IMG/VR virus record: IMGVR_UViG_3300011338_000356
Coordinates: 1-30,353 of that record
DNA: 30,353 bases
Direction: 5' to 3' (one strand)
DNA from: a virus
Taxonomy: Duplodnaviria > Caudoviricetes
The position numbers and the translations under genes are program-made. The notes under the pieces are model-generated. The model was not told where the DNA came from, did no database searches, and worked only from the letters and a program-made list of their open reading frames with translations. Below are positions 10,096 to 27,435 of this stretch, piece by piece; the stretch's first letter is position 1; the number at the start of each line of letters is the position of its first letter.

Positions 10096-10509
10096 ATGCC
10101 ATCAAACGAATTTAGATTAAAGTACAAGATTAGGAACAAAGCAGCACAAGTTCTAAAGAAAGTAATCAAAGAAGATGCCTTGATTGATACGGGTACATTA
10201 TATGAATCGGTGCGTATTAATGCTAAATTCACTACTGAAGGTAATCTTCGTATCGAAATACTTGCAGCATATTACTTCGGATTCTTGAATAACGGAACAA
10301 TCACCATTGAACCATATAATTTAGTTCGACAATTTAATTTGCGTTTAGAATCTTCAGGAATAATATCTGAAATGTACGCACAATACTTCGAGTGGTTGGC
10401 AAGTAAATATCCGCTTGTTCAAGTAGCGGGAATGCTTCGTAAAAAGCAAAACGTAATTTATGACTTTAACCCATTATTCGGTGAATTTTGGGGTGCTTTG
10501 GAATATTAG
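10096..10509 (+). CDS. Neck/tail completion protein (HK97 gp10-like)
   Basis: IDTGTLYESV and YFGFLNNGT match the DTG.L..S / Y...le.GT pattern of this family. Confidence 0.55.
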   Translation: MPSNEFRLKYKIRNKAAQVLKKVIKEDALIDTGTLYESVRINAKFTTEGNLRIEILAAYYFGFLNNGTITIEPYNLVRQFNLRLESSGIISEMYAQYFEWLASKYPLVQVAGMLRKKQNVIYDFNPLFGEFWGALEY

Positions 10510-11270
10510 ACGTTCAATTCTTTTTTCATCCCGAGAAAGTTAAAGACCAGGATTAATGGAAGGTCACAAACAGCATAGAATTTAGTTAAATCTTCGTTGC
10601 ATAATGCCCATATAAGCTGTTCCCATGCCCATTTTTGCTGCTTCTTTTCTTCTTCGATTTCTTTCATTTCTTCAGCATCCGCGTTTTCAGATAATTCGAA
10701 ATCATCTTCATAGCTTTCAGTCATTAGATTTTTATATTGCTCTATAAAACTTTCACGATATTTAATGTATTCGGGCAACAATCCAAAAACATCCGTTATT
10801 TTAAAATCCCAAAACCATTCTAACCTATCATTCGAATTATAGTTATAAGGTTCTAACGTTTCATCACCCCATTCATTAACACGGAATCTTCGATAAAGTA
10901 TTGCAACGATATTAGGTAGCTTTAAAATGTAGTTATCCGCGAAATATGTTTCTAAACTTATGAATTCACCTAACGTTAGTTTGTTAAATGGTTTTAGTTT
11001 ATAGCTTCCAAGTTCAGATTTGTAGTTCTTGGGTGGTTCATCACGTATAAACTTAACGGATAGTAATAATTCTTCAAGTTCTTCGATAGCTAATTCATCA
11101 ATATCTTCAGGGTAGCAATCTAATAACGTACAAAGTACATCTATTTGATAATTAAAAACCCCTTCTTCATCAGACAAGGTCTTCAGTTCTATAAATGATT
11201 CAATCGTTATCTGATTCCACGCTTTCGGAAGCTTGTTTTTTAGCGTGTTCAGAGATTGTGCTTGTGACAT
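10506..11270 (-). CDS. Putative tail assembly chaperone (start uncertain); paralogue of the upstream gene
   Basis: Acidic; LPKAWNQITIESF, LTLGEFISLE, IVAILYRR and a C-terminal W..LIWALCNEDLTKF..V.DLP..LVFNFL segment. Confidence 0.5.
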   Translation of the reverse strand: MSQAQSLNTLKNKLPKAWNQITIESFIELKTLSDEEGVFNYQIDVLCTLLDCYPEDIDELAIEELEELLLSVKFIRDEPPKNYKSELGSYKLKPFNKLTLGEFISLETYFADNYILKLPNIVAILYRRFRVNEWGDETLEPYNYNSNDRLEWFWDFKITDVFGLLPEYIKYRESFIEQYKNLMTESYEDDFELSENADAEEMKEIEEEKKQQKWAWEQLIWALCNEDLTKFYAVCDLPLILVFNFLGMKKELNV

Positions 11271-11742
11271 AGTTAAGATATGGAATTGCTATTTCAGCCG
11301 GTTGCATTCTAAATAGTTTAGATTTATGTTTTAGATGTGCTGAATCGTAGTGTTCCGTGTTACTTAGGTCGGTTCGCTTAAACATCAAAGCCATAATATC
11401 AGACACTGAATGTTTATTTTCCTTAGTAACCATTTTCTCGATTAGCTTGGTGTCTTTTACCGAGAGTTTTAATTCAGCTTTGTAAGTGTACCCATCTATT
11501 TCTATTTCACCGATAGGGTTTTTAGCTTCATAGTTATCCGTATTAAATTCTTGTGTTTTTTCTACGAAGTATTTAAAGTCATCCCATTCATCCTCATCGA
11601 CTCCTACTACTTCAAACACTTTGATTTGCTTTTCGATGTTATCGAGTTCCTTATCGTTATGGATAGCGCTTATCTTTTCGAATTCTTCTATGGTAATTTC
11701 GTTCATTTTATTGGCGATTTGCCTTCCAAGTACTTCAATCAT
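11200..11742 (-). CDS. Putative tail assembly chaperone-like protein
   Basis: NEITIEEF and IMALMFKR resemble NQITIESF and IVAILYRR of the neighbour; has its own promoter-like site upstream. Confidence 0.45.
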   Translation of the reverse strand: MIEVLGRQIANKMNEITIEEFEKISAIHNDKELDNIEKQIKVFEVVGVDEDEWDDFKYFVEKTQEFNTDNYEAKNPIGEIEIDGYTYKAELKLSVKDTKLIEKMVTKENKHSVSDIMALMFKRTDLSNTEHYDSAHLKHKSKLFRMQPAEIAIPYLNYVTSTISEHAKKQASESVESDND

Positions 11743-11756
11743 CTTTATAATTTTTG

Positions 11757-11783
11757 AACAAATATAAATAAATTATAATATAG
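11757..11783 (+). promoter_or_regulatory. Candidate late promoter AACA-N15-TAATATAG, copy 3
   Basis: AACA 11757-11760, TAATATAG 11776-11783, ATG at 11788. Confidence 0.6.
11759..11766 (-). promoter_or_regulatory. Bacteroidota -7 promoter element TATATTTG for the two minus-strand genes
   Basis: Reverse complement of CAAATATA (11759-11766), 16 nt before the ATG at 11742. Confidence 0.6.
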
Positions 11784-11787
11784 TGAG

Positions 11788-12789
11788 ATGACAAAGGATT
11801 TACCTATCTACAAAATCACGATTGACCCTGAATATTCCGATGGCGAAGATTTAGGAATTGAACAAATTGCGTTCACTTCCAATCCCGCAATTAAAGTAAA
11901 AGGAATGGCATTTAGTCATGAAGTTAAAATGTTATTTGCAGACGATTTAAAATATCGCGTGACTGCACCCGCTATGATTCCAATGGAAATTTATAGACGT
12001 GACGATGAAAGCGGCGAATATTATGTTCAATTCACTGAAGAAACAATCGAGCAAATTCACGCTAAGTTCATGCAAGATTTAAAGAATCGTGATATCTTTA
12101 ATTTAGAACATGACCAAGCACAACAAGTTCCAGCATATATTCTTGAATCTTGGATTGTAGATAACCCGAAAAAAGATAAAGCGTTCAGCACATTTGGAAT
12201 TGATGTTCCAAAGGGAACACTTATGATAACAGCGCAAGTTACCGACAAAGACTATTACAACGAATTAGTGAAAGCTGAACAAGTTGGTTTTTCTATTGAA
12301 GGGTTTTTAGGTTTGAAATTAAGTAATCAAATAAATCAATATAGTATGAACAAATTACCCGATGGGGAACACCTAATCGAAGGTAAAATCTATGTCGTAA
12401 AAGGCGGTGAGATTATCGAGATTAAGGATGCACCAAAAGAAGAAGTAGCTATGGAAAGCGATTCGGTAGTTGAAGAAGAAGTAACCACTGAAACTGAACC
12501 TATTGATGAGCAACCCGCACCTGAAGAACTTGAAGAAATCAAAGAAGAAGTGAAAGAAGAAGTAAAAATGGCTGTTGATGTAACAACTGATGCTGAAGCT
12601 GTTTTAGCAATTGTTTCACCCGTACTTGAAGAACAAGTAAACAACCTATTAAAAATTATCGCTGACTTAAAAAGCCAAATGGAAGATATGTTAGCGGAAG
12701 AAACAACTACTGAAGAAGCGATGAAATCTGAAGTAAAAATGAGTATGGCTGAAAAATTCAGCGCATTGACTAAATTAAGTAATAACTAA
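11788..12789 (+). CDS. Prohead protease (XkdF-like) with acidic scaffold-like C-terminus
   Basis: APAMIP..IYR, FNLEH, ESWIV, PKGT.M and GFSIEG motifs; directly upstream of the capsid gene; Glu-rich tail. Confidence 0.85.
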   Translation: MTKDLPIYKITIDPEYSDGEDLGIEQIAFTSNPAIKVKGMAFSHEVKMLFADDLKYRVTAPAMIPMEIYRRDDESGEYYVQFTEETIEQIHAKFMQDLKNRDIFNLEHDQAQQVPAYILESWIVDNPKKDKAFSTFGIDVPKGTLMITAQVTDKDYYNELVKAEQVGFSIEGFLGLKLSNQINQYSMNKLPDGEHLIEGKIYVVKGGEIIEIKDAPKEEVAMESDSVVEEEVTTETEPIDEQPAPEELEEIKEEVKEEVKMAVDVTTDAEAVLAIVSPVLEEQVNNLLKIIADLKSQMEDMLAEETTTEEAMKSEVKMSMAEKFSALTKLSNN

Positions 12790-14750: not shown

Positions 14751-16070
14751 ATGGCTTGGTACGATATATTTAGACAAAGTGAAAAACAAAATATTGAAGT
14801 CGTGGAAGGCTATCAAAGTTTTAGTACACCTTTTTATAAGATTGGCGGTGCAAATCTCGCATTACCTTATGTAAATGGGCGCTATCAAGTTGCTGGTTAT
14901 ATTCCATTTGGTCAAGATAACTTATATCCCGAAACATTAAATCAAATGTACTATTCATCACCATTACATGGAGCGATAGTAGATTATAAAGTGAATGCAG
15001 TTATCGGTGGTGGTTTTACTATTAAAACGGAAAAGCTAACAAACGAAGAAAAATTAGAGCTCTACGCATTTGAAAAGAAGATAAAGCTAAAAAAGGTTGC
15101 AGCGATTGTTACCAAGCAATTAGTTATTCATAATAGGGTTTATTTTAAATTGTGTTTTTCAGAACGCGGAAAACTTACAAAAGTAGAAAACCTATCACCT
15201 GAGAAATTACGACGTTCTCGTGATGGGAAAACCTACTTTATATGTGAAGATTGGGCATCAAGAATAGATGTATTTGAAATCACGCCTTATCACCCGCTTA
15301 GCAACGAGTACGAACAGCTTTATATATACGAATTACCTTGTATTGGTCAAGATTATTATCCATTGCCGCAATATAGTTCAGCACTTAATTTTGCGTTTTT
15401 GAGTGGCGAGTTATCATACTTAGCGAAATCAAACATTCAGAATGCTGTTTTCCCGTCTTTTGCTATGATGTTTCCTAAACGTCCGCAAAGCGAAGAAGAA
15501 AAAAATGTGTTAAGACGAACAATTGACAAGCTTAAAGGCGCAGAAAACGCGGGTAAAGCAGTTGCATTTTTTGCGAACTCACCCGAGCAGATGCCTAAAA
15601 TTGAAAGTTTACCAACTAACTCAAACGATAAATTATTCCAAGAAGCATCGGCGTTAAACACCGAGCAGATTTGCTTTGCGCATACGATAGATCCTATATT
15701 AATGGGTGTTAGAACTACGGGCGCATTAGGTTCGGGTTCGGATATCAAACAAGCTTACGTTATATTCGAGAAAAACGTAGTTAAACCATTACGAGAAATC
15801 GTACAAGATATATTTAACGAATTGTTACATATCGCTAAAGTTAAAGGTGAGTTAGTTATTAATAACTTTCAAATCATTAACGAAACGATTGTTGAAGTTG
15901 AAGAAAGCGCAAGTAAAACAAGCGAAGCTTTGAATTCGATGTCACCTTTGGTAGCTACGAAAGTTTTAGATTCAATGACTTCAAACGAAATTCGTGCTTT
16001 AGCATCGTTACCACCAATCGAAGGCGGTGATGGTGTTCCTAATACTAACCCCGAAACTCCTGCAGTATAA
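14751..16070 (+). CDS. Portal protein
   Basis: FGQDNLYP, SPLHGAIV..K, YYPLPQY, GAENAGK, ICFAH.IDP.LMG, VVKPLR and MTSNEIR motifs. Confidence 0.9.
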   Translation: MAWYDIFRQSEKQNIEVVEGYQSFSTPFYKIGGANLALPYVNGRYQVAGYIPFGQDNLYPETLNQMYYSSPLHGAIVDYKVNAVIGGGFTIKTEKLTNEEKLELYAFEKKIKLKKVAAIVTKQLVIHNRVYFKLCFSERGKLTKVENLSPEKLRRSRDGKTYFICEDWASRIDVFEITPYHPLSNEYEQLYIYELPCIGQDYYPLPQYSSALNFAFLSGELSYLAKSNIQNAVFPSFAMMFPKRPQSEEEKNVLRRTIDKLKGAENAGKAVAFFANSPEQMPKIESLPTNSNDKLFQEASALNTEQICFAHTIDPILMGVRTTGALGSGSDIKQAYVIFEKNVVKPLREIVQDIFNELLHIAKVKGELVINNFQIINETIVEVEESASKTSEALNSMSPLVATKVLDSMTSNEIRALASLPPIEGGDGVPNTNPETPAV

Positions 16071-16624: not shown

Positions 16625-16836
16625 TTGACTTAAACAAACTTTTTGAAATTATTAAAAAGCAAGGAGCAACGGGAGTTTTAGCGTTGTGGTTGTTTTACAC
16701 TCATACGGAAGTACAAGAATTAAAGCATCGTCTTTATGATTGTTATGGTAAAACTAAAGGAATGGTTCAAGAACCAATTACTGACACTACTAATTTTGCG
16801 GTTATACCCAAAGACGAATTAATAGAGATTGAATGA
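16621..16836 (+). CDS. Holin-like small membrane protein
   Basis: One hydrophobic segment (GATGVLALWLFY); overlaps the endolysin start. Confidence 0.4.
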   Translation: MIDLNKLFEIIKKQGATGVLALWLFYTHTEVQELKHRLYDCYGKTKGMVQEPITDTTNFAVIPKDELIEIE

Positions 16837-17351
16837 ACTACGATTGGTTAAAAGAAGAAAAAGCACCCCGTGTTTTAGTTCAAGCTGTTAAACAACTTGG
16901 AGTAACTGAGATCGTAGGCAAAGAACACAATCCTGTTATTTTATCTTGGGCGCGTGAACTAAAATTAGCAAGTGTCTATAACGCTGATGAGATACCTTGG
17001 TGCGGTTTATTCGTAGCTTATTGTTGTAAAATGGCAGGATTAGAAGTAGTAGACAAACCATTGTGGGCGTTATCGTGGGCAACGTGGGGTAACCCTGTAA
17101 CCGAACCAATGTTAGGGGATATCTTAACATTTAAAAGAACGGGTGGTGGTCACGTTGGAATATATGTAGGTGAAGACTTAACACACTACCACATTTTAGG
17201 CGGTAACCAAGGTAATTCGGTAAGTGTGTCACGAATCGCTAAAAGTAGACTACACAAAGCAAGAAGAACGGCTTGGAAAGTTGCACAACCTACAAGCGTA
17301 AGAAAGATTAAATTAGCACCAAAAGGAGTAATAACAACAAACGAACAATAA
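16833..17351 (+). CDS. Endolysin, NlpC/P60-CHAP-type peptidase (TIGR02594-like)
   Basis: DEIPWCGLFV (catalytic Cys), GGGHVGIY (His) and LGGNQGNSV. Confidence 0.9.
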   Translation: MNYDWLKEEKAPRVLVQAVKQLGVTEIVGKEHNPVILSWARELKLASVYNADEIPWCGLFVAYCCKMAGLEVVDKPLWALSWATWGNPVTEPMLGDILTFKRTGGGHVGIYVGEDLTHYHILGGNQGNSVSVSRIAKSRLHKARRTAWKVAQPTSVRKIKLAPKGVITTNEQ

Positions 17352-17352
17352 A

Positions 17353-17580
17353 ATGGCAAAGAAAAAGAAAAATGTAGATGTAGAAATTCAAGTGAATGAC
17401 GCATCGTTAGAGATTAAAAGAGATGAAACAATTAGCGAAGTGAAATTAGATACTAAGAACTTAGATATCGAAGTTACAAAAACGGATGACAAAGTCGAGG
17501 TGAAAGTCGATGCTCAAAAGCCGTTATTGAATTTTGTTGGAAAAGTTTTGGGTAGATATATAACTAAGAGATTAAAATAG
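17353..17580 (+). CDS. Hypothetical protein
   Basis: 75-aa ORF ending the lysis block; amphipathic basic C-terminus. Confidence 0.6.
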   Translation: MAKKKKNVDVEIQVNDASLEIKRDETISEVKLDTKNLDIEVTKTDDKVEVKVDAQKPLLNFVGKVLGRYITKRLK

Positions 17581-17653
17581 TATATTTGCACCATTCTTCA
17601 TAATTGAATAGGTTAATTGTTAACGAGAACCCTTGCTTCGGTAGGGGTTTTTT
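17581..17653 (+). ncRNA. Candidate small antisense RNA unit (promoter, ~60-nt RNA, terminator)
   Basis: TATATTTG at 17581-17588, no + strand ORF, terminator at 17627-17653; body is complementary to early-gene start regions. Confidence 0.6.
17627..17653 (+). terminator. Rho-independent terminator
   Basis: AACCCTTGC-TTCG-GTAGGGGTT followed by a T run. Confidence 0.9.
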
Positions 17654-17693: not shown

Positions 17694-17723
17694 TTGTTAT
17701 ATTAAAAAGTATAACTATCTTTG
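17694..17723 (+). promoter_or_regulatory. Early promoter (TTG-N19-TATCTTTG) containing the conserved 27-bp element, copy 1
   Basis: Bacteroidota -33/-7 consensus; TTATATTAAAAAGTATAACTATCTTTG at 17697-17723. Confidence 0.75.
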
Positions 17724-17747
17724 TTGAAACAATTAAGATAAACAATT

Positions 17748-17957
17748 ATGAAAACTTTAAAATTAAACAAGAAATCAAAAGGGTATTATACAAATCAAGT
17801 TGATAATATTGAAGTTGTTGTATCTGAATTTAAAGGAAATTGGACAGGCGAAATATTAGATTGGAATAAATCAAATGATGAGTTTATTGTTTATAAAACT
17901 TTTGCATCGACAAAAAAAATAGTAGTAAATCAATTAACACAATATTTTTTAAACTAA
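17748..17957 (+). CDS. Hypothetical early protein
   Basis: First ORF after the promoter; A-rich leader. Confidence 0.7.
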   Translation: MKTLKLNKKSKGYYTNQVDNIEVVVSEFKGNWTGEILDWNKSNDEFIVYKTFASTKKIVVNQLTQYFLN

Positions 17958-17988: not shown

Positions 17989-18006
17989 ATTAACAATTAA
18001 TTTATT

Positions 18007-18153
18007 ATGAAAAAACACTTTTACAACTTGTTAGACCAAGTTACACCACGCAACGAAGAGGATAAAGACATTTTAATAACGTTTTTAGGCTTTTTCCCGC
18101 TACTTCTCGTAACGATTGGCGCATTGTATTCACTTTTAATTTATATGCGATGA
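18007..18153 (+). CDS. Small membrane protein, 48 aa (absent from ORF track)
   Basis: MKKHFYNLLDQVTPRNEEDKDILITFLGFFPLLLVTIGALYSLLIYMR; AACAATTAA leader; ATGA overlap with the next ORF. Confidence 0.7.
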   Translation: MKKHFYNLLDQVTPRNEEDKDILITFLGFFPLLLVTIGALYSLLIYMR

Positions 18154-21229: not shown

Positions 21230-21334
21230 TATATTTGTATTCGAGTTCATCCTACATTATAAAACTCGTAAAGGTATTATTGACCCTTTGAATGAATGTG
21301 AGGTAGGATGCACAGGATTTCAAGGGGTTTTTTT
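21230..21334 (+). promoter_or_regulatory. Promoter (TATATTTG) plus structured leader/attenuator of the replication operon
   Basis: Hairpin 21242-21268; terminator-like hairpin 21282-21329 with T run; complementary loops. Confidence 0.65.
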
Positions 21335-21350
21335 ATTTATACAACAACAA

Positions 21351-21923: not shown

Positions 21924-22888
21924 TAACACAAGAAGGTGATTGCCTACAATATTTGTTAGACTATAAAGATGGTAAAATAAAAGACGGATTGAAAATTGAT
22001 TGTCATTTAGATGAGTACATACGTTTTAAACCTAATCAACTGAATATAATTTTAGGACACGATAACGTCGGTAAGACGTATTGGATTAATTGGTACTTCT
22101 TAACATTGGCACTTAAACACGATTTGAAGTTTTGTATTTGGAGCGGTGAAAACAAGAAAGCTACAATTCTTCGTGATTTGCTTCAGATGTATTACGGAAT
22201 AAAATTCAAAGATTTAACCTACCAACAAATAACAACGGGAACAACAATAATTGAACAGCAATTTAAATTCATAAGCAATAAGGAATTATACAAGCCAAAT
22301 GAATTATTGAAGCTATTTGAAGAAAGTGAATGTAATGTAGCGTTGATTGACCCATTTACAGGCTTAGATAGGCAAATGGATTTTCAAAGTAACTATAATT
22401 TCTTAAATACTTGCCGTGATTTCTGCAATAAGTTCGGAGTTACGATATACATAAACACGCACCCAAATAGCGAAAGTGGTAGGAGTGGTAACGTTTATCA
22501 GGAAGGCGAATATAAAGGACATTTAAAAGCACCTTTAAAAGACCATATCGAAGGAGGTAAAGCGTTTAGTAACCGATGTGACGATTTGTTTGTAATACAT
22601 CGCTTAGTAAAACACGAAACAATGAAATACTGTACTTGGGTAAACGTTGAGAAAGTTAAAGATATGGACACGGGAGGTAAACATACTGCATTGAATGACC
22701 CTTTAATGTTTGATTTTAATTCGGGATTAGGATTTAAAATTAATGGAGTTGATCCGTTATTTAATGTTAGACCAAAAATATCAAATAGCTTCCCGACTAA
22801 ACTACCTTTGAATAAACCCGATATTGTAAATGGAAAAGAATTACTTTCGTTTAGCGAAAAGATGAATAATAACGATGTACCTTTCTAA
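21920..22888 (+). CDS. Replicative helicase-like P-loop ATPase (SF4/DnaB-like)
   Basis: Walker A GHDNVGKT, WSGEN, Walker B ALIDPF, NTHP and IEGGKAFSNRCDD. Confidence 0.8.
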   Translation: MITQEGDCLQYLLDYKDGKIKDGLKIDCHLDEYIRFKPNQLNIILGHDNVGKTYWINWYFLTLALKHDLKFCIWSGENKKATILRDLLQMYYGIKFKDLTYQQITTGTTIIEQQFKFISNKELYKPNELLKLFEESECNVALIDPFTGLDRQMDFQSNYNFLNTCRDFCNKFGVTIYINTHPNSESGRSGNVYQEGEYKGHLKAPLKDHIEGGKAFSNRCDDLFVIHRLVKHETMKYCTWVNVEKVKDMDTGGKHTALNDPLMFDFNSGLGFKINGVDPLFNVRPKISNSFPTKLPLNKPDIVNGKELLSFSEKMNNNDVPF

Positions 22889-22890
22889 TT

Positions 22891-23184
22891 ATGGATGAAC
22901 TAACAATAATATCAGGCAAAGTAAACTTAGATACTACTTATTTAAAGATTAAACTAAGCCTTGAAGAAATAAAACAAAAACACGGAACAAGAACTGATTT
23001 AATTGACTCAATGGAACGTAGTTTAGCAGACCTTCAAGAAGTTAAGATTGCGTACGACGCTATGGAGAAGGAACTAAGGGCAGCGTTACAACAAAACTTT
23101 AGACTTGAAAAGCTACTTCAGGAAGAAAAGTTTAAAGTAAAAGATTTAGAAATACAATTAAAAATGAAAGACGCAGAGTTATGA
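22891..23184 (+). CDS. Coiled-coil hypothetical protein
   Basis: 97 aa with heptad pattern. Confidence 0.65.
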   Translation: MDELTIISGKVNLDTTYLKIKLSLEEIKQKHGTRTDLIDSMERSLADLQEVKIAYDAMEKELRAALQQNFRLEKLLQEEKFKVKDLEIQLKMKDAEL

Positions 23185-23720: not shown

Positions 23721-23743
23721 CCGAAACAATTAAACCTTAAACA

Positions 23744-24634
23744 ATGAAAAATTATGATTTATTTGGTAATGAAATAGTTACCGACCCTATTTTAAGGGAG
23801 CAATTTATCGAGCCGCCATTTAGTGTGTTAGATACAAAAAGCGGTAATTGGGTAAGACGTAAAAAGTTATGGAAACAAATAGGAATCAAAAGTGAAATCG
23901 GAAGAGAATTAAAAACTATAAATGCAGGAACTGATTTATATAAAAATTGCAAAGAAAGATTAAATTCAAAAGGAATTGATAGTGCAAAAGAACCACACGC
24001 ATCTATTTTTGACCCTGCATTATGTGAAGTTTTATATAAATGGTTTTGTGTTGAAGGCGGCGAAATATTAGACCCATTCGCTGGTGGTTCGGTTCGAGGT
24101 ATTGTCGCAAATAAATTAGGTTATAAATACACGGGTATTGATATAAGACAAGAACAAATAGATAGTAATAGAGAACAGGGTTTAGATATATTAGACGTAA
24201 ATAATCAGCCTAATTGGTATTGTGGTGATTCAAATGAAATTTTAGATAATTTTAATAAAGAATTTGATTTTGTTTTTAGTTGCCCACCTTATGCAGATTT
24301 AGAAGTTTATAGCGATTTAGAAGGAGATATTAGTAATAAACCATATGATGAGTTTTTAAGATTATACGAAAGTATTATTGAAAAATCTTGTAAACTATTA
24401 AAAAAAGATTGTTTAGTTTGTTTTGTAGTTGGTGAGGTTAGAGATAAAAAAGGTAATTACATAGGTTTTGTTCCTGATACAATTCGTGCTTTTGAAAAAT
24501 GCGGAATGAAATTTTATAATGAAGCCATTTTATTAAATGCAATCGCTTCTGCTTCAATGAGAGCAAATGGTAATATGAAAACACGAAAACTTGTAAAAGT
24601 ACATCAAAACATTTTAGTCTTTAAAAAATATTAA
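23744..24634 (+). CDS. Orphan amino-DNA methyltransferase (m4C or m6A)
   Basis: SAM-binding ILDPFAGGSVRG precedes catalytic FSCPPY; no adjacent endonuclease. Confidence 0.85.
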   Translation: MKNYDLFGNEIVTDPILREQFIEPPFSVLDTKSGNWVRRKKLWKQIGIKSEIGRELKTINAGTDLYKNCKERLNSKGIDSAKEPHASIFDPALCEVLYKWFCVEGGEILDPFAGGSVRGIVANKLGYKYTGIDIRQEQIDSNREQGLDILDVNNQPNWYCGDSNEILDNFNKEFDFVFSCPPYADLEVYSDLEGDISNKPYDEFLRLYESIIEKSCKLLKKDCLVCFVVGEVRDKKGNYIGFVPDTIRAFEKCGMKFYNEAILLNAIASASMRANGNMKTRKLVKVHQNILVFKKY

Positions 24635-25041: not shown

Positions 25042-25071
25042 CATACGTTAAACAATTTAAAAATATGAATT

Positions 25072-25611
25072 ATGAAAAAATTAGCAGAAATTCAGGCAGA
25101 ATTAAAATGTCCAAAGGGAAGTTTCAATGCATTCGGAAAGTACAAGTACCGAAGTGCTGAACAAATCTTAGAATCAGTTAAACCATTATTGTATAAACAC
25201 GGAGCAACATTAGTTCTTAGTGATTGTATTGAACAAATTGGAAACAAGCTATTTTTAAAGGCTACAGCAACGTTAAATATAGATGGAACTGAAATACTTG
25301 TTGATAGTTACGCTGAAATGGGAGAGCATAAAGGAATGTCATCTGAGCAATGCACGGGAACGGCAAGCTCATACGCACGAAAGTATGCGCTTAATGGACT
25401 TTTCCTTATCGACGAGACCGAAAGTGACCCTGATTCAAGAGATAACAAGAAAGAAGAACCAGTAAAACCGAAAGCAAAAAAACCTATAATAGAAGGTGAA
25501 CGCTTTTTAAAAGCAGTTGAAGCGATTCGTAATGGTGAATTCACAGCTGAAGAACTACAAGCTAAGTTCGAATTAAATGAAGTTCAACAAAAAGCGCTTT
25601 TATTGTTATGA
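25072..25611 (+). CDS. erf: ERF-family single-strand annealing protein
   Basis: N.FGKYKYRSAEQILESVKPLL, Q.TG.ASSYARKYAL.GLF.I and D.D motifs. Confidence 0.9.
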   Translation: MKKLAEIQAELKCPKGSFNAFGKYKYRSAEQILESVKPLLYKHGATLVLSDCIEQIGNKLFLKATATLNIDGTEILVDSYAEMGEHKGMSSEQCTGTASSYARKYALNGLFLIDETESDPDSRDNKKEEPVKPKAKKPIIEGERFLKAVEAIRNGEFTAEELQAKFELNEVQQKALLLL

Positions 25612-26279
25612 AAATAAGATGTTCCCAAATCGGTAAATTGATGACTTCACCCAAAACAAAGGGTGAGGTCTTATCTAAAACTACAAAAACCTACATTCAA
25701 GAACTTGCAATCGAACATAAATACGGAATCCGTAAAGAGTTTTGGTCGCGATACACTGATAAAGGTAACGAAGTAGAAGACGAAGGTATTGAATTAGTTA
25801 ACGATGTTCTTGATTTAGGCTTCATCTACAAAAATGACGAGAACCTAACTAACGATTATTTAACGGGAACTCCCGATGTAAACACGAATGAGGTTCTTTT
25901 AGATGTCAAGTGTTCTTGGGATGCTACTACTTTTCCTTTTTTTGAGACTGAATGCCCAAATAAAGACTATTTTTTTCAGTTGCAAGGGTACTTATGGTTA
26001 ACGGGAAAAGACGAAGCATTGCTTTGTTATTGCCTTATAAACACACCATTTCAAATCGTAGAAGATGAGGTTAGACGTGAACATTGGAAGCAAGGGTTGA
26101 TAGATGAAAGTTTAGACGTAAGAGATTTTGTGCAGAAGAAGCATAACTTTGACCATATTCCGAAAGAAAGACGTTTAAAGGTGTTTAAAATAGTAAAAGA
26201 CGAAGCAGTGATAGAACAAATTAAAGAAAGAATAGAATTAGCAAGAGAGTATTATAACAATTTAATTAACGAATTATGA
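25608..26279 (+). CDS. YqaJ/lambda-exonuclease-like nuclease
   Basis: IRCSQIG, KGNEVED, GTPD...DVKC (PD-(D/E)xK) and Y.FQLQGY.WLTG; coupled to erf. Confidence 0.85.
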   Translation: MKIRCSQIGKLMTSPKTKGEVLSKTTKTYIQELAIEHKYGIRKEFWSRYTDKGNEVEDEGIELVNDVLDLGFIYKNDENLTNDYLTGTPDVNTNEVLLDVKCSWDATTFPFFETECPNKDYFFQLQGYLWLTGKDEALLCYCLINTPFQIVEDEVRREHWKQGLIDESLDVRDFVQKKHNFDHIPKERRLKVFKIVKDEAVIEQIKERIELAREYYNNLINEL

Positions 26280-26461
26280 AAGATTTAAAAGTAATGGGTC
26301 ACTATTATAACGTGACAAGAGAGGATCAAGTTGTCCAAATCAAAGATTTGCAAAAAACAAAAGTATGGTATGAAGTACTACGTCAATATGACAAAAACAC
26401 GATTACCGATTTTTGCTGCACCCGTGAAAGATTTAATAACATATATCGTGAGAAAAAATGA
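26276..26461 (+). CDS. Hypothetical protein
   Basis: ATGA-coupled 61-aa ORF. Confidence 0.6.
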   Translation: MKDLKVMGHYYNVTREDQVVQIKDLQKTKVWYEVLRQYDKNTITDFCCTRERFNNIYREKK

Positions 26462-27051: not shown

Positions 27052-27081
27052 TAGACAATTAACAATTTAAAAACACGAATT

Positions 27082-27435
27082 ATGAAAGATTTAACAAGAG
27101 ATTGCCAAGAATGTAATGGTTGGGGAACTATAACAATCGAACACAACGGAACGGAAATTCCTTATCTACAAGATATAGTAGATTATGAATGTATGTCTTG
27201 CACGGGAACCGGAGAGCAATTAGACCCTGATTTAATTAAAGAACGTATTGATGAGGTTAACGATATGATTCAAGGTATGCAAGATAGAATGCGGGTAATA
27301 TCCGATACGATTATGTTTTGCAAAAAAGGATTACTTCACGAATTAGCTAAAAAATACGTTGATCGATTAGATACTTGTGCGCGTGGTGTTGGACGTTTAA
27401 ATATTTATAAGAATAAATTGCTTAAATTAGCCTAA
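27082..27435 (+). CDS. DnaJ-type zinc-finger protein
   Basis: CQECNGWG and CMSCTGTG (CxxCxGxG twice). Confidence 0.7.
   Translation: MKDLTRDCQECNGWGTITIEHNGTEIPYLQDIVDYECMSCTGTGEQLDPDLIKERIDEVNDMIQGMQDRMRVISDTIMFCKKGLLHELAKKYVDRLDTCARGVGRLNIYKNKLLKLA

Follow-up and report, generated by a model that had tools for sequence, protein, structure and literature searches.

The window analyzed here, a whole virus record of 30,353 bases with genes nearly all on one strand, carries between its lysis genes and its first early promoter a short cassette which, with a probability of about two in three, encodes a small RNA acting in trans to keep ribosomes from initiating on early mRNAs of the same phage, a block that likely serves as delayed negative feedback. 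The cassette consists, in order, of a promoter, a block complementary to start codons (anti-start-codon block), a block complementary to early leaders (anti-leader block) and a terminator, and the argument for its function is built on comparison of sequences across related and unrelated phages. A trans-acting RNA directed at early starts had already been proposed by an earlier, sequence-only reading; of that proposal, the conserved noncoding cassette and a seed that tracks the promoter-led leaders of its own phage stand, while the repression is a prediction.

The late region of the genome extends up to position 17580 and holds the terminase, tail, head, portal and lysin genes; small ORFs, then replication and recombination genes, occupy the stretch from there to about 27.5 kb. 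Promoters in the window are of the Bacteroidota type (TTG, 19 nt, TAnnTTTG). A family scan of 53 ORFs, many of them without any family, returned neither an integrase nor an antirepressor. The closest cultured relative by portal protein shares 24% identity, and among annotated phages a blastn search with the region found none whose match spans the cassette. The only substantial minus-strand ORFs (10506-11270 and 11200-11742) lie amid the structural genes behind a minus-strand promoter at 11766; they are conserved in four genomes and belong to no family. A second promoter-to-terminator stretch of about 95 nt (21230-21336) precedes a DUF6291 replication gene (start 21351) and had no Rfam match; it contains a complementary 8-nt pair, in place of which relatives have a different complementary pair, and this pattern suggests a structured attenuator.

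The -7 element and the UUCG terminator of the cassette were both found where the sequence-only reading had placed them, and the reverse complement of 17597-17623 reads exactly as it had been given (Table 1). The cassette promoter in the window lacks a -33 TTG at the usual spacing; across 39 distinct cassette variants, a TTG lies 18-19 nt upstream of the box in 21. The TAnnTTTG box sits at -12 to -5 relative to the transcription start according to the available part of PMC9723704, and the start of the predicted RNA was placed accordingly (17593-17653). The sole stable fold computed for this RNA is the terminator hairpin (-19 kcal/mol; equally good folds in 2/200 shuffles), which likely ends the lysis-gene transcript too. 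The complementarity on which the proposal turned stood up to shuffling: the window has two instances of the bipartite pattern (17599-17621 on the minus strand and 17728-17750 on the plus strand) against 0.00 expected from 100 shuffles. The 9-mer TTAACAATT alone is at chance level (3 found, 1.9 expected).

Table 1. Coordinates of the cassette, its surroundings and its predicted targets in the window. Energies are computed binding energies of the predicted RNA; fractions of 50 give the shuffled seeds that bound as well.
Feature	Position	Strand	Remarks
CHAP/NlpC-type lysin and conserved 75-aa ORF	16833..17580	+	Close the late region, upstream of the cassette
Sigma-A -7 promoter box TAnnTTTG (TATATTTG)	17581..17588	+	Begins right after the ORF 17353-17580 stop codon
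Predicted small RNA, about 61 nt, no ORF	17593..17653	+	5' part mostly unpaired, plus terminator; start inferred from box position
Anti-start-codon block	17597..17606	+	Complementary to AUG and neighbors; T.CATA invariant in 36 aligned variants
Anti-leader block	17613..17623	+	Complement of AACAATTAA at early-mRNA 5' ends; TTAATTG invariant in 36 aligned variants
Intrinsic terminator, C(UUCG)G hairpin and U-run	17627..17653	+	U-run on the plus strand only
Early promoter (TTG, 19 nt, TATCTTTG)	17694..17723	+	Predicted start 17728, the first base of the block
Predicted target, entire 20-nt leader and the start of ORF 17748 (69 aa, no family)	17728..17752	+	Best anchored score of 52 starts; -14.8 kcal/mol, 0/50
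Predicted target, leader of ORF 18007	17990..18012	+	-13.7 kcal/mol, 0/50; block in 4/4 homologs
Doubtful target, start region of ORF 22891	22864..22896	+	-16.8 kcal/mol without block; block in 0/6 homologs
Weak predicted target, DNA methyltransferase leader (PF01555)	23725..23748	+	-7.9 kcal/mol, 3/50
Predicted target, promoter-led erf leader (PF04404)	25051..25076	+	-11.0 kcal/mol, 0/50; block in 6/6 homologs
Predicted target, leader of ORF 26276 (61 aa)	26256..26280	+	-11.6 kcal/mol, 1/50; block in only 1/6 homologs
Predicted target, promoter-led leader of ORF 27082 (117 aa, CxxC motifs)	27059..27086	+	-11.0 kcal/mol, 1/50; block in 4/6 homologs

To establish the conservation of the cassette, 32 syntenic loci were located via the upstream 75-aa ORF and read as raw sequence, with no selection by cassette pattern. 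The cassette, promoter box included, follows directly after the stop codon of that ORF in every one (32/32). Among 55 further loci located by the lysin only, 7 were too short to assess; the cassette was present in 39 of the 48 assessable loci and absent from 9, in which mostly other genes continue at that place. In 36 distinct variants, chosen by promoter/terminator pattern, the core motifs of both blocks are invariant (T.CATA and TTAATTG) and the intervening spacer differs in length and content; two invariant blocks around a variable spacer fit an RNA duplex with a loop. The terminator stem is paired in 99.4% of alignment cells, with 2/9 pairs changed on both sides. The next leader downstream keeps ACAATTAA in 44/45 distinct cassette/leader pairs, in front of a first gene that varies among at least eight proteins. 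Much had been made at first of an identical 6-nt spacing in the cassette and the adjacent leader; blocks and spacing are as described, but the identity is incidental, being found in 12/45 cassette/next-leader pairs, and spacer length in the RNA is uncorrelated with that in the leader over the 45 distinct pairs (rho = 0.13, P = 0.40). One related locus (G003, L056:10750-10900) has two promoter-terminator cassettes in tandem, the second of which lacks CAT and scores 41 bits with the family model.

The window has eight plus-strand copies of the block AACAATT(A/T)A, of which six lie in early leaders (ORFs 17748, 18007, 23744, 25072, 26276 and 27082), and a single minus-strand copy, inside the cassette. 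The blocks claimed at 17990/17992, 23725, 25051 and 27059/27061 are all present; that at 26256, before ORF 26276, had been missed, as had a differently shaped match at ORF 22891. The notion of a whole early regulon is right in that several early leaders carry the block, and too wide in that these are 6 leaders of 26 early-half starts. Likewise, three of the five targets first named lie behind promoters (17748, 25072 and 27082) and two do not (18007 and 23744). Since the predicted start of the first early transcript coincides with the first base of the matched block, the RNA would cover the entire leader of ORF 17748. Computed binding, folding costs included, ranged from -8 to -17 kcal/mol for seven early candidates versus -3 to -6 kcal/mol for 6/7 late starts, the exception being the start of the terminase small subunit (-9.8 kcal/mol, better than all 50 shuffles); these targets had been picked as best scorers, and their shuffles are no independent test. 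By plain duplex energy, stronger sites exist within coding regions (-26.8 kcal/mol at 15211). When the 48 plus-strand starts are ranked by anchored score, the top nine all fall in the early half (P = 0.002), but much of this bias is generic, because unrelated cassettes likewise place five to nine early genes in the window's top nine and ATGAA starts are commoner early (14/26 early versus 5/22 late); the upstream block alone did not separate early from late starts (P = 0.17). In the seven family genomes searched for homologs, the block was found on no homolog of a late window gene, and two block-bearing genes without a window homolog were of uncertain class.

Judged by sequence comparison, the seed and the leaders of the same phage change together across phages. 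The target in this analysis was the first promoter-led leader downstream, which 157 of 283 cassettes had (the other 126 were dropped). Over 16 clusters, own pairs were better than foreign ones (residual -3.08 kcal/mol; 0/100,000 permutations, P < 10−5; shuffled-leader control, -0.51 ± 0.48), with the own leader ranked first in 7 clusters, in the top three in 12 and eighth or worse in 4. A strand-asymmetry test based on G:U wobble gave a similar signal on the opposite strand (-2.55 versus -3.08), and the covariation tests therefore demonstrate matched sequence and not RNA pairing as such. A further set of fetched records was reduced from 43 to 38 (23 families by shared proteins), the other five having no cassette that passed the filter or a real opposite-strand gene start. 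Across these families, the own signal for promoter-led leaders was again significant (P = 0.0005); genes of 250 aa or more had no own-leader signal (P = 0.31), and there was no covariation downstream of the AUG (P = 0.62). The within-genome contrast was not significant across the 23 families (P = 0.13) because several distant cassettes, such as those of G008, G020 and G036, have no good own target. Covariation across relatives, as anticipated by the sequence-only reading, is thus borne out for promoter-led leaders, including those that are not adjacent to the cassette.

These distant leaders bear directly on the best-surviving alternative, itself unlikely, in which the element acts in cis: in late transcripts that read through the terminator, the anti-leader block would fold onto the next leader 110 nt downstream and silence only the first early gene. 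The computed fold of such a read-through RNA pairs the two with a mean probability of 0.72, no leader in the window matches better than the adjacent one, and the terminator also closes the lysis region. All 32 syntenic loci nevertheless retain the promoter box, for which cis action would have no need, and covariation persists when genes within 1 kb downstream are removed, both across 22 families (P = 0.005) and within the window's family (P = 0.004), in which each of four seed types gives its top rank to its own distant leaders. Furthermore, the erf gene, 7 kb off, retains the block in all six of its homologs, the best match in phage Fpv5 is also 7 kb off, and in filifjonk9-1 and TCUEAP1 the matched leaders are on the other strand.

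The architecture extends well beyond the window's family. A pattern of promoter, TTTCAT and terminator tail retrieved about 190 viral stretches (121 seen in 40/64 parts), a raw count that is not dereplicated and is dominated by the window's family, with 34 sequence clusters seen; permuted controls retrieved 16 stretches (anti-AUG hexamer permuted; a hairpin is missing or CAT present in several) and 5 stretches (promoter permuted). A second terminator pattern added about 260 further stretches. Over all 14 intergenic cassettes of 12 cultured Bacteroidota phages, which were taken from similarity hit lists and not by cassette pattern (ctnlZ23, one of 13, was excluded), the seed-leader signal was significant by energy (P = 0.01) and by longest match (P = 2 × 10−5). 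Cultured examples include phage 11b at 30326, filifjonk9-1 at 45 (minus strand) and BT498P1 at 12664; no intergenic cassette was found in Arctus_1, BF486P1 or PM708P3. In phage 11b the block is altered to AAACCAAATA on both sides, cassette and leaders alike. The link between the window and 11b is architectural rather than one of demonstrated homology, because the family model fails to detect the 11b cassette. The post-lysis cassettes of Fpv5 (L561:19888) and tant8-1 (L559:40431) match leaders in two blocks that reach as far as the AUG without covering it; that of tant8-1 is annotated as a 31-aa hypothetical gene. Some matching leaders of 11b (L553:30326) belong to small, separately promoted genes within the structural region, and one at about 28740 precedes a five-codon ORF, possibly a frameshifted gene.

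In a set of seven cassettes picked by eye, the Flavobacterium phages 11b, filifjonk9-1, Fpv5 and tant8-1 have four different seeds, each of which ranks its own leaders first. This weighs against another unlikely explanation, rated a little below cis action, in which the main targets are host mRNAs (shut-off) or the early mRNAs of competing phages and the match to own leaders reflects a start-site style shared by Bacteroidota. The part of the seed complementary to ATGAA is indeed generic, a small own-genome signal exists at non-promoter starts too (P = 0.001 across 23 families), and several distant cassettes, as noted, are without a good own target. However, the four phages of Flavobacterium hosts differ in seed, each seed matching its own leaders, and the bipartite motif occurs only five times in five Bacteroidota genomes (about 20 Mb; 7 for the reversed control) against twice in the 30-kb window. 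Host mRNAs, which the sequence-only reading had entertained as targets, are therefore disfavored as the main ones.

Slightly less probable still is a role for the block as a DNA site bound by a phage protein (e.g., the Cro-like ORF 26782) at early transcription starts, or an origin of the cassette as a neutral inverted leader copy or as the relic of a minus-strand gene. At least 21/27 leader copies of the block in the seven family genomes sit just behind a promoter, TTAACAATTAA is pseudo-palindromic, the wobble test gave the similar opposite-strand signal described above, and real opposite-strand gene starts occur in distant records (G019, G029 and G035, twice in the last). A DNA site nevertheless leaves unexplained the invariant anti-AUG at variable distance and the flanking promoter and terminator, as well as the strict strand bias of the block (55 coding-strand versus 8 reverse copies in the seven genomes, 6 of the 8 being the cassette), and drift of the spacer between two preserved blocks is not what a neutral copy would show. 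Read on the minus strand from the hidden ATG, the sequence yields 2-115 codons in all three frames, with no TAnnTTTG box upstream on that strand; the cassette is thus not a gene relic, a possibility that the sequence-only reading had held against its own proposal. Among 45 elements, real opposite-strand gene starts amount to four clear cases plus one shadow ORF. At five loci (G019:16999, G029:1687, G035:1088 and 14652, and L564:8695), the promoter box lies within the first codons of an opposite-strand gene, and the terminator lies upstream of the latter. Such a cis-antisense layout may be chance, or it could be where the trans form came from.

Type I antitoxins have one dedicated target, with which they form a long continuous duplex. 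That the cassette encodes one, with the 48-aa membrane protein of ORF 18007 as the toxin and the other matches secondary, is very improbable: this neighbor is small and hydrophobic (18007-18153; a single predicted membrane helix, with a hydropathy of 2.47 averaged over 19 residues), is commonly the first of the early genes in relatives, lies right behind the cassette in most of them and has the block in all four homologs, but the computed pairing is short and split and involves several targets, seven other first genes share the same leader, erf and ORF 27082 keep the block, the ORF 18007 protein matches no Pfam, PHROGs or Atlas family, and antitoxin models score far below threshold.

In the preferred reading, a trans-acting RNA aimed at the phage's own early leaders, a host-type sigma-A promoter would drive a 61-nt RNA that pairs with about six early mRNAs via two short helices around an internal loop. 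The duplex would span the whole 20-30 nt leader through the AUG and so stop ribosome loading; repression of early leaders is proposed by analogy with the bacterial RNAs FopS and GibS. Initiation in Bacteroidota relies on adenines at -3, -6 and -11 to -15 (available part of PMC7366714), and this adenine-rich stretch is what the RNA would cover. As infection proceeds the RNA would accumulate, with late transcripts that stop at the shared terminator adding to the pool, and would then cap the expression of host-takeover and recombination genes (the first early gene, the erf operon and ORF 27082), with most structural genes escaping its control; swappable early genes could enter the circuit by keeping the leader. 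Delayed negative feedback is, we infer, the most likely role, and the simplest because the RNA and its targets share the host sigma-A promoter type; it is also the weakest step of the explanation.

Early-gene shut-off in small phages that use only the host RNA polymerase is largely unknown outside a few models. A broader proposition, that Bacteroidota phages have repeatedly evolved a master anti-leader RNA, a single short transcript from the late/early boundary that turns off several early genes by way of a shared, phage-specific leader tag, is more tentative, and we give it somewhat less than an even chance. Because the seed is lineage-specific, the same RNA would also silence incoming relatives bearing that tag, and immunity would follow from the same pairing; if true, this would amount to timing control and superinfection immunity by RNA only, in phages without a repressor. 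The question is directly testable because the cassette occurs in cultured phages, and the seed offers a portable translational switch for Bacteroidota.

The claim that the element belongs to no described family holds for Rfam membership: nothing in the window reached a gathering score, and the best sub-threshold match was isrB (25.2 of 35 bits, driven by the terminator). The design, however, has a close precedent in the same phylum. FopS, which binds RbpB, blocks translation at the first gene of its target operons, and one copy in a phage is mentioned in the available part of PMC11697453; GibS of Bacteroides thetaiotaomicron pairs over start regions and represses like FopS (PMC7366714, in part). 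Like FopS, the cassette has a sigma-A promoter, a single-stranded 5' part and an intrinsic terminator, together with computed complementarity to the first-gene start regions of several operons. Unlike FopS, which has 12-15 chromosomal paralogs (PMC11697453, same part), it is present as a single copy in a phage, and a search for multicopy paralogs gave three weak matches in 151 genomes from the order to which a Flavobacteriaceae genome belongs. It also differs from both FopS and GibS in that its predicted targets are the phage's own early leaders, covarying with the seed. The FopS model (RF04319; gathering score, 56 bits) had no plus-strand match at E ≤ 10 in the window, and its sole match there (18 bits) is the reverse of the ORF 18007 leader; conversely, the model of the cassette family scored 24-26 bits on FopS copies (E of 0.3-1). 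The promoter/anti-AUG/terminator pattern retrieves the Rfam copies of FopS in Parabacteroides as well as other bacterial families.

Among phage regulators, RegA of T4 is a protein repressor that covers the AU-rich start regions of many early mRNAs. The cassette resembles it in setting one phage factor (here predicted) on many early start regions and differs in that the factor would be an RNA with specificity by base pairing; an RNA controlling a set of early genes via a shared leader would be an RNA equivalent of RegA, with the FopS/GibS principle put to use by a phage. The c4 antisense RNA pairs at two sites. Both c4 (P1/P7, RF01695) and sar (P22) act on one antirepressor mRNA each, in temperate phages of Proteobacteria (available part of PMC12197685). 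The cassette shares with them the position of a phage small RNA at the initiation region of phage mRNAs (here predicted) and the phage specificity given by seed differences; it differs in being unstructured outside the terminator and in having several scattered predicted targets. RF01695 had no match in the window, its multi-stem structure is absent (the terminator being the only stable fold), and the 53 scanned ORFs, many without family, include no antirepressor or integrase such as a c4-type target in a temperate phage would entail. Unlike in the cis-antisense RNAs sar and OOP, no conserved opposite-strand ORF overlaps the cassette, such overlap being confined to some distant records. A similar layout is that of the Start Associated Sequences (SAS) of cluster K mycobacteriophages, a shared, oriented motif just upstream of non-structural gene starts; four genomes also have a single copy in reverse orientation that is unconnected with any gene start (available part of PMC3203893). 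SAS has a Shine-Dalgarno core and, in that part of the source, no identified cognate RNA; the cassette block is without such a core. In a literature search that reached few subscription journals and bioRxiv supplements, no paper was listed that describes, for Bacteroidota, a phage RNA directed against several early leaders of the same phage. The phage small RNAs covered in the available part of a 2025 review act on one phage mRNA or on host mRNAs and include no Bacteroidota example (PMC12197685). The two cassette motifs are absent from the searched part of the supplements of a large phage RNA screen (PMC10690425), elsewhere in which the element may be listed.

Cassettes of the same general build also occur in other settings. 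Four larger lake phages (L113, L126, L136 and L138) have one or two cassettes, each right before another promoter and without a match to the adjacent leader. Finally, chromosomal families with the promoter/anti-AUG/terminator arrangement (L357, L369, L384, L408, L432 and related loci), two Chryseobacterium loci of which were scanned and had no Rfam match, are found in Chitinophagaceae, Bacteroidales, Chryseobacterium and Saprospiraceae.
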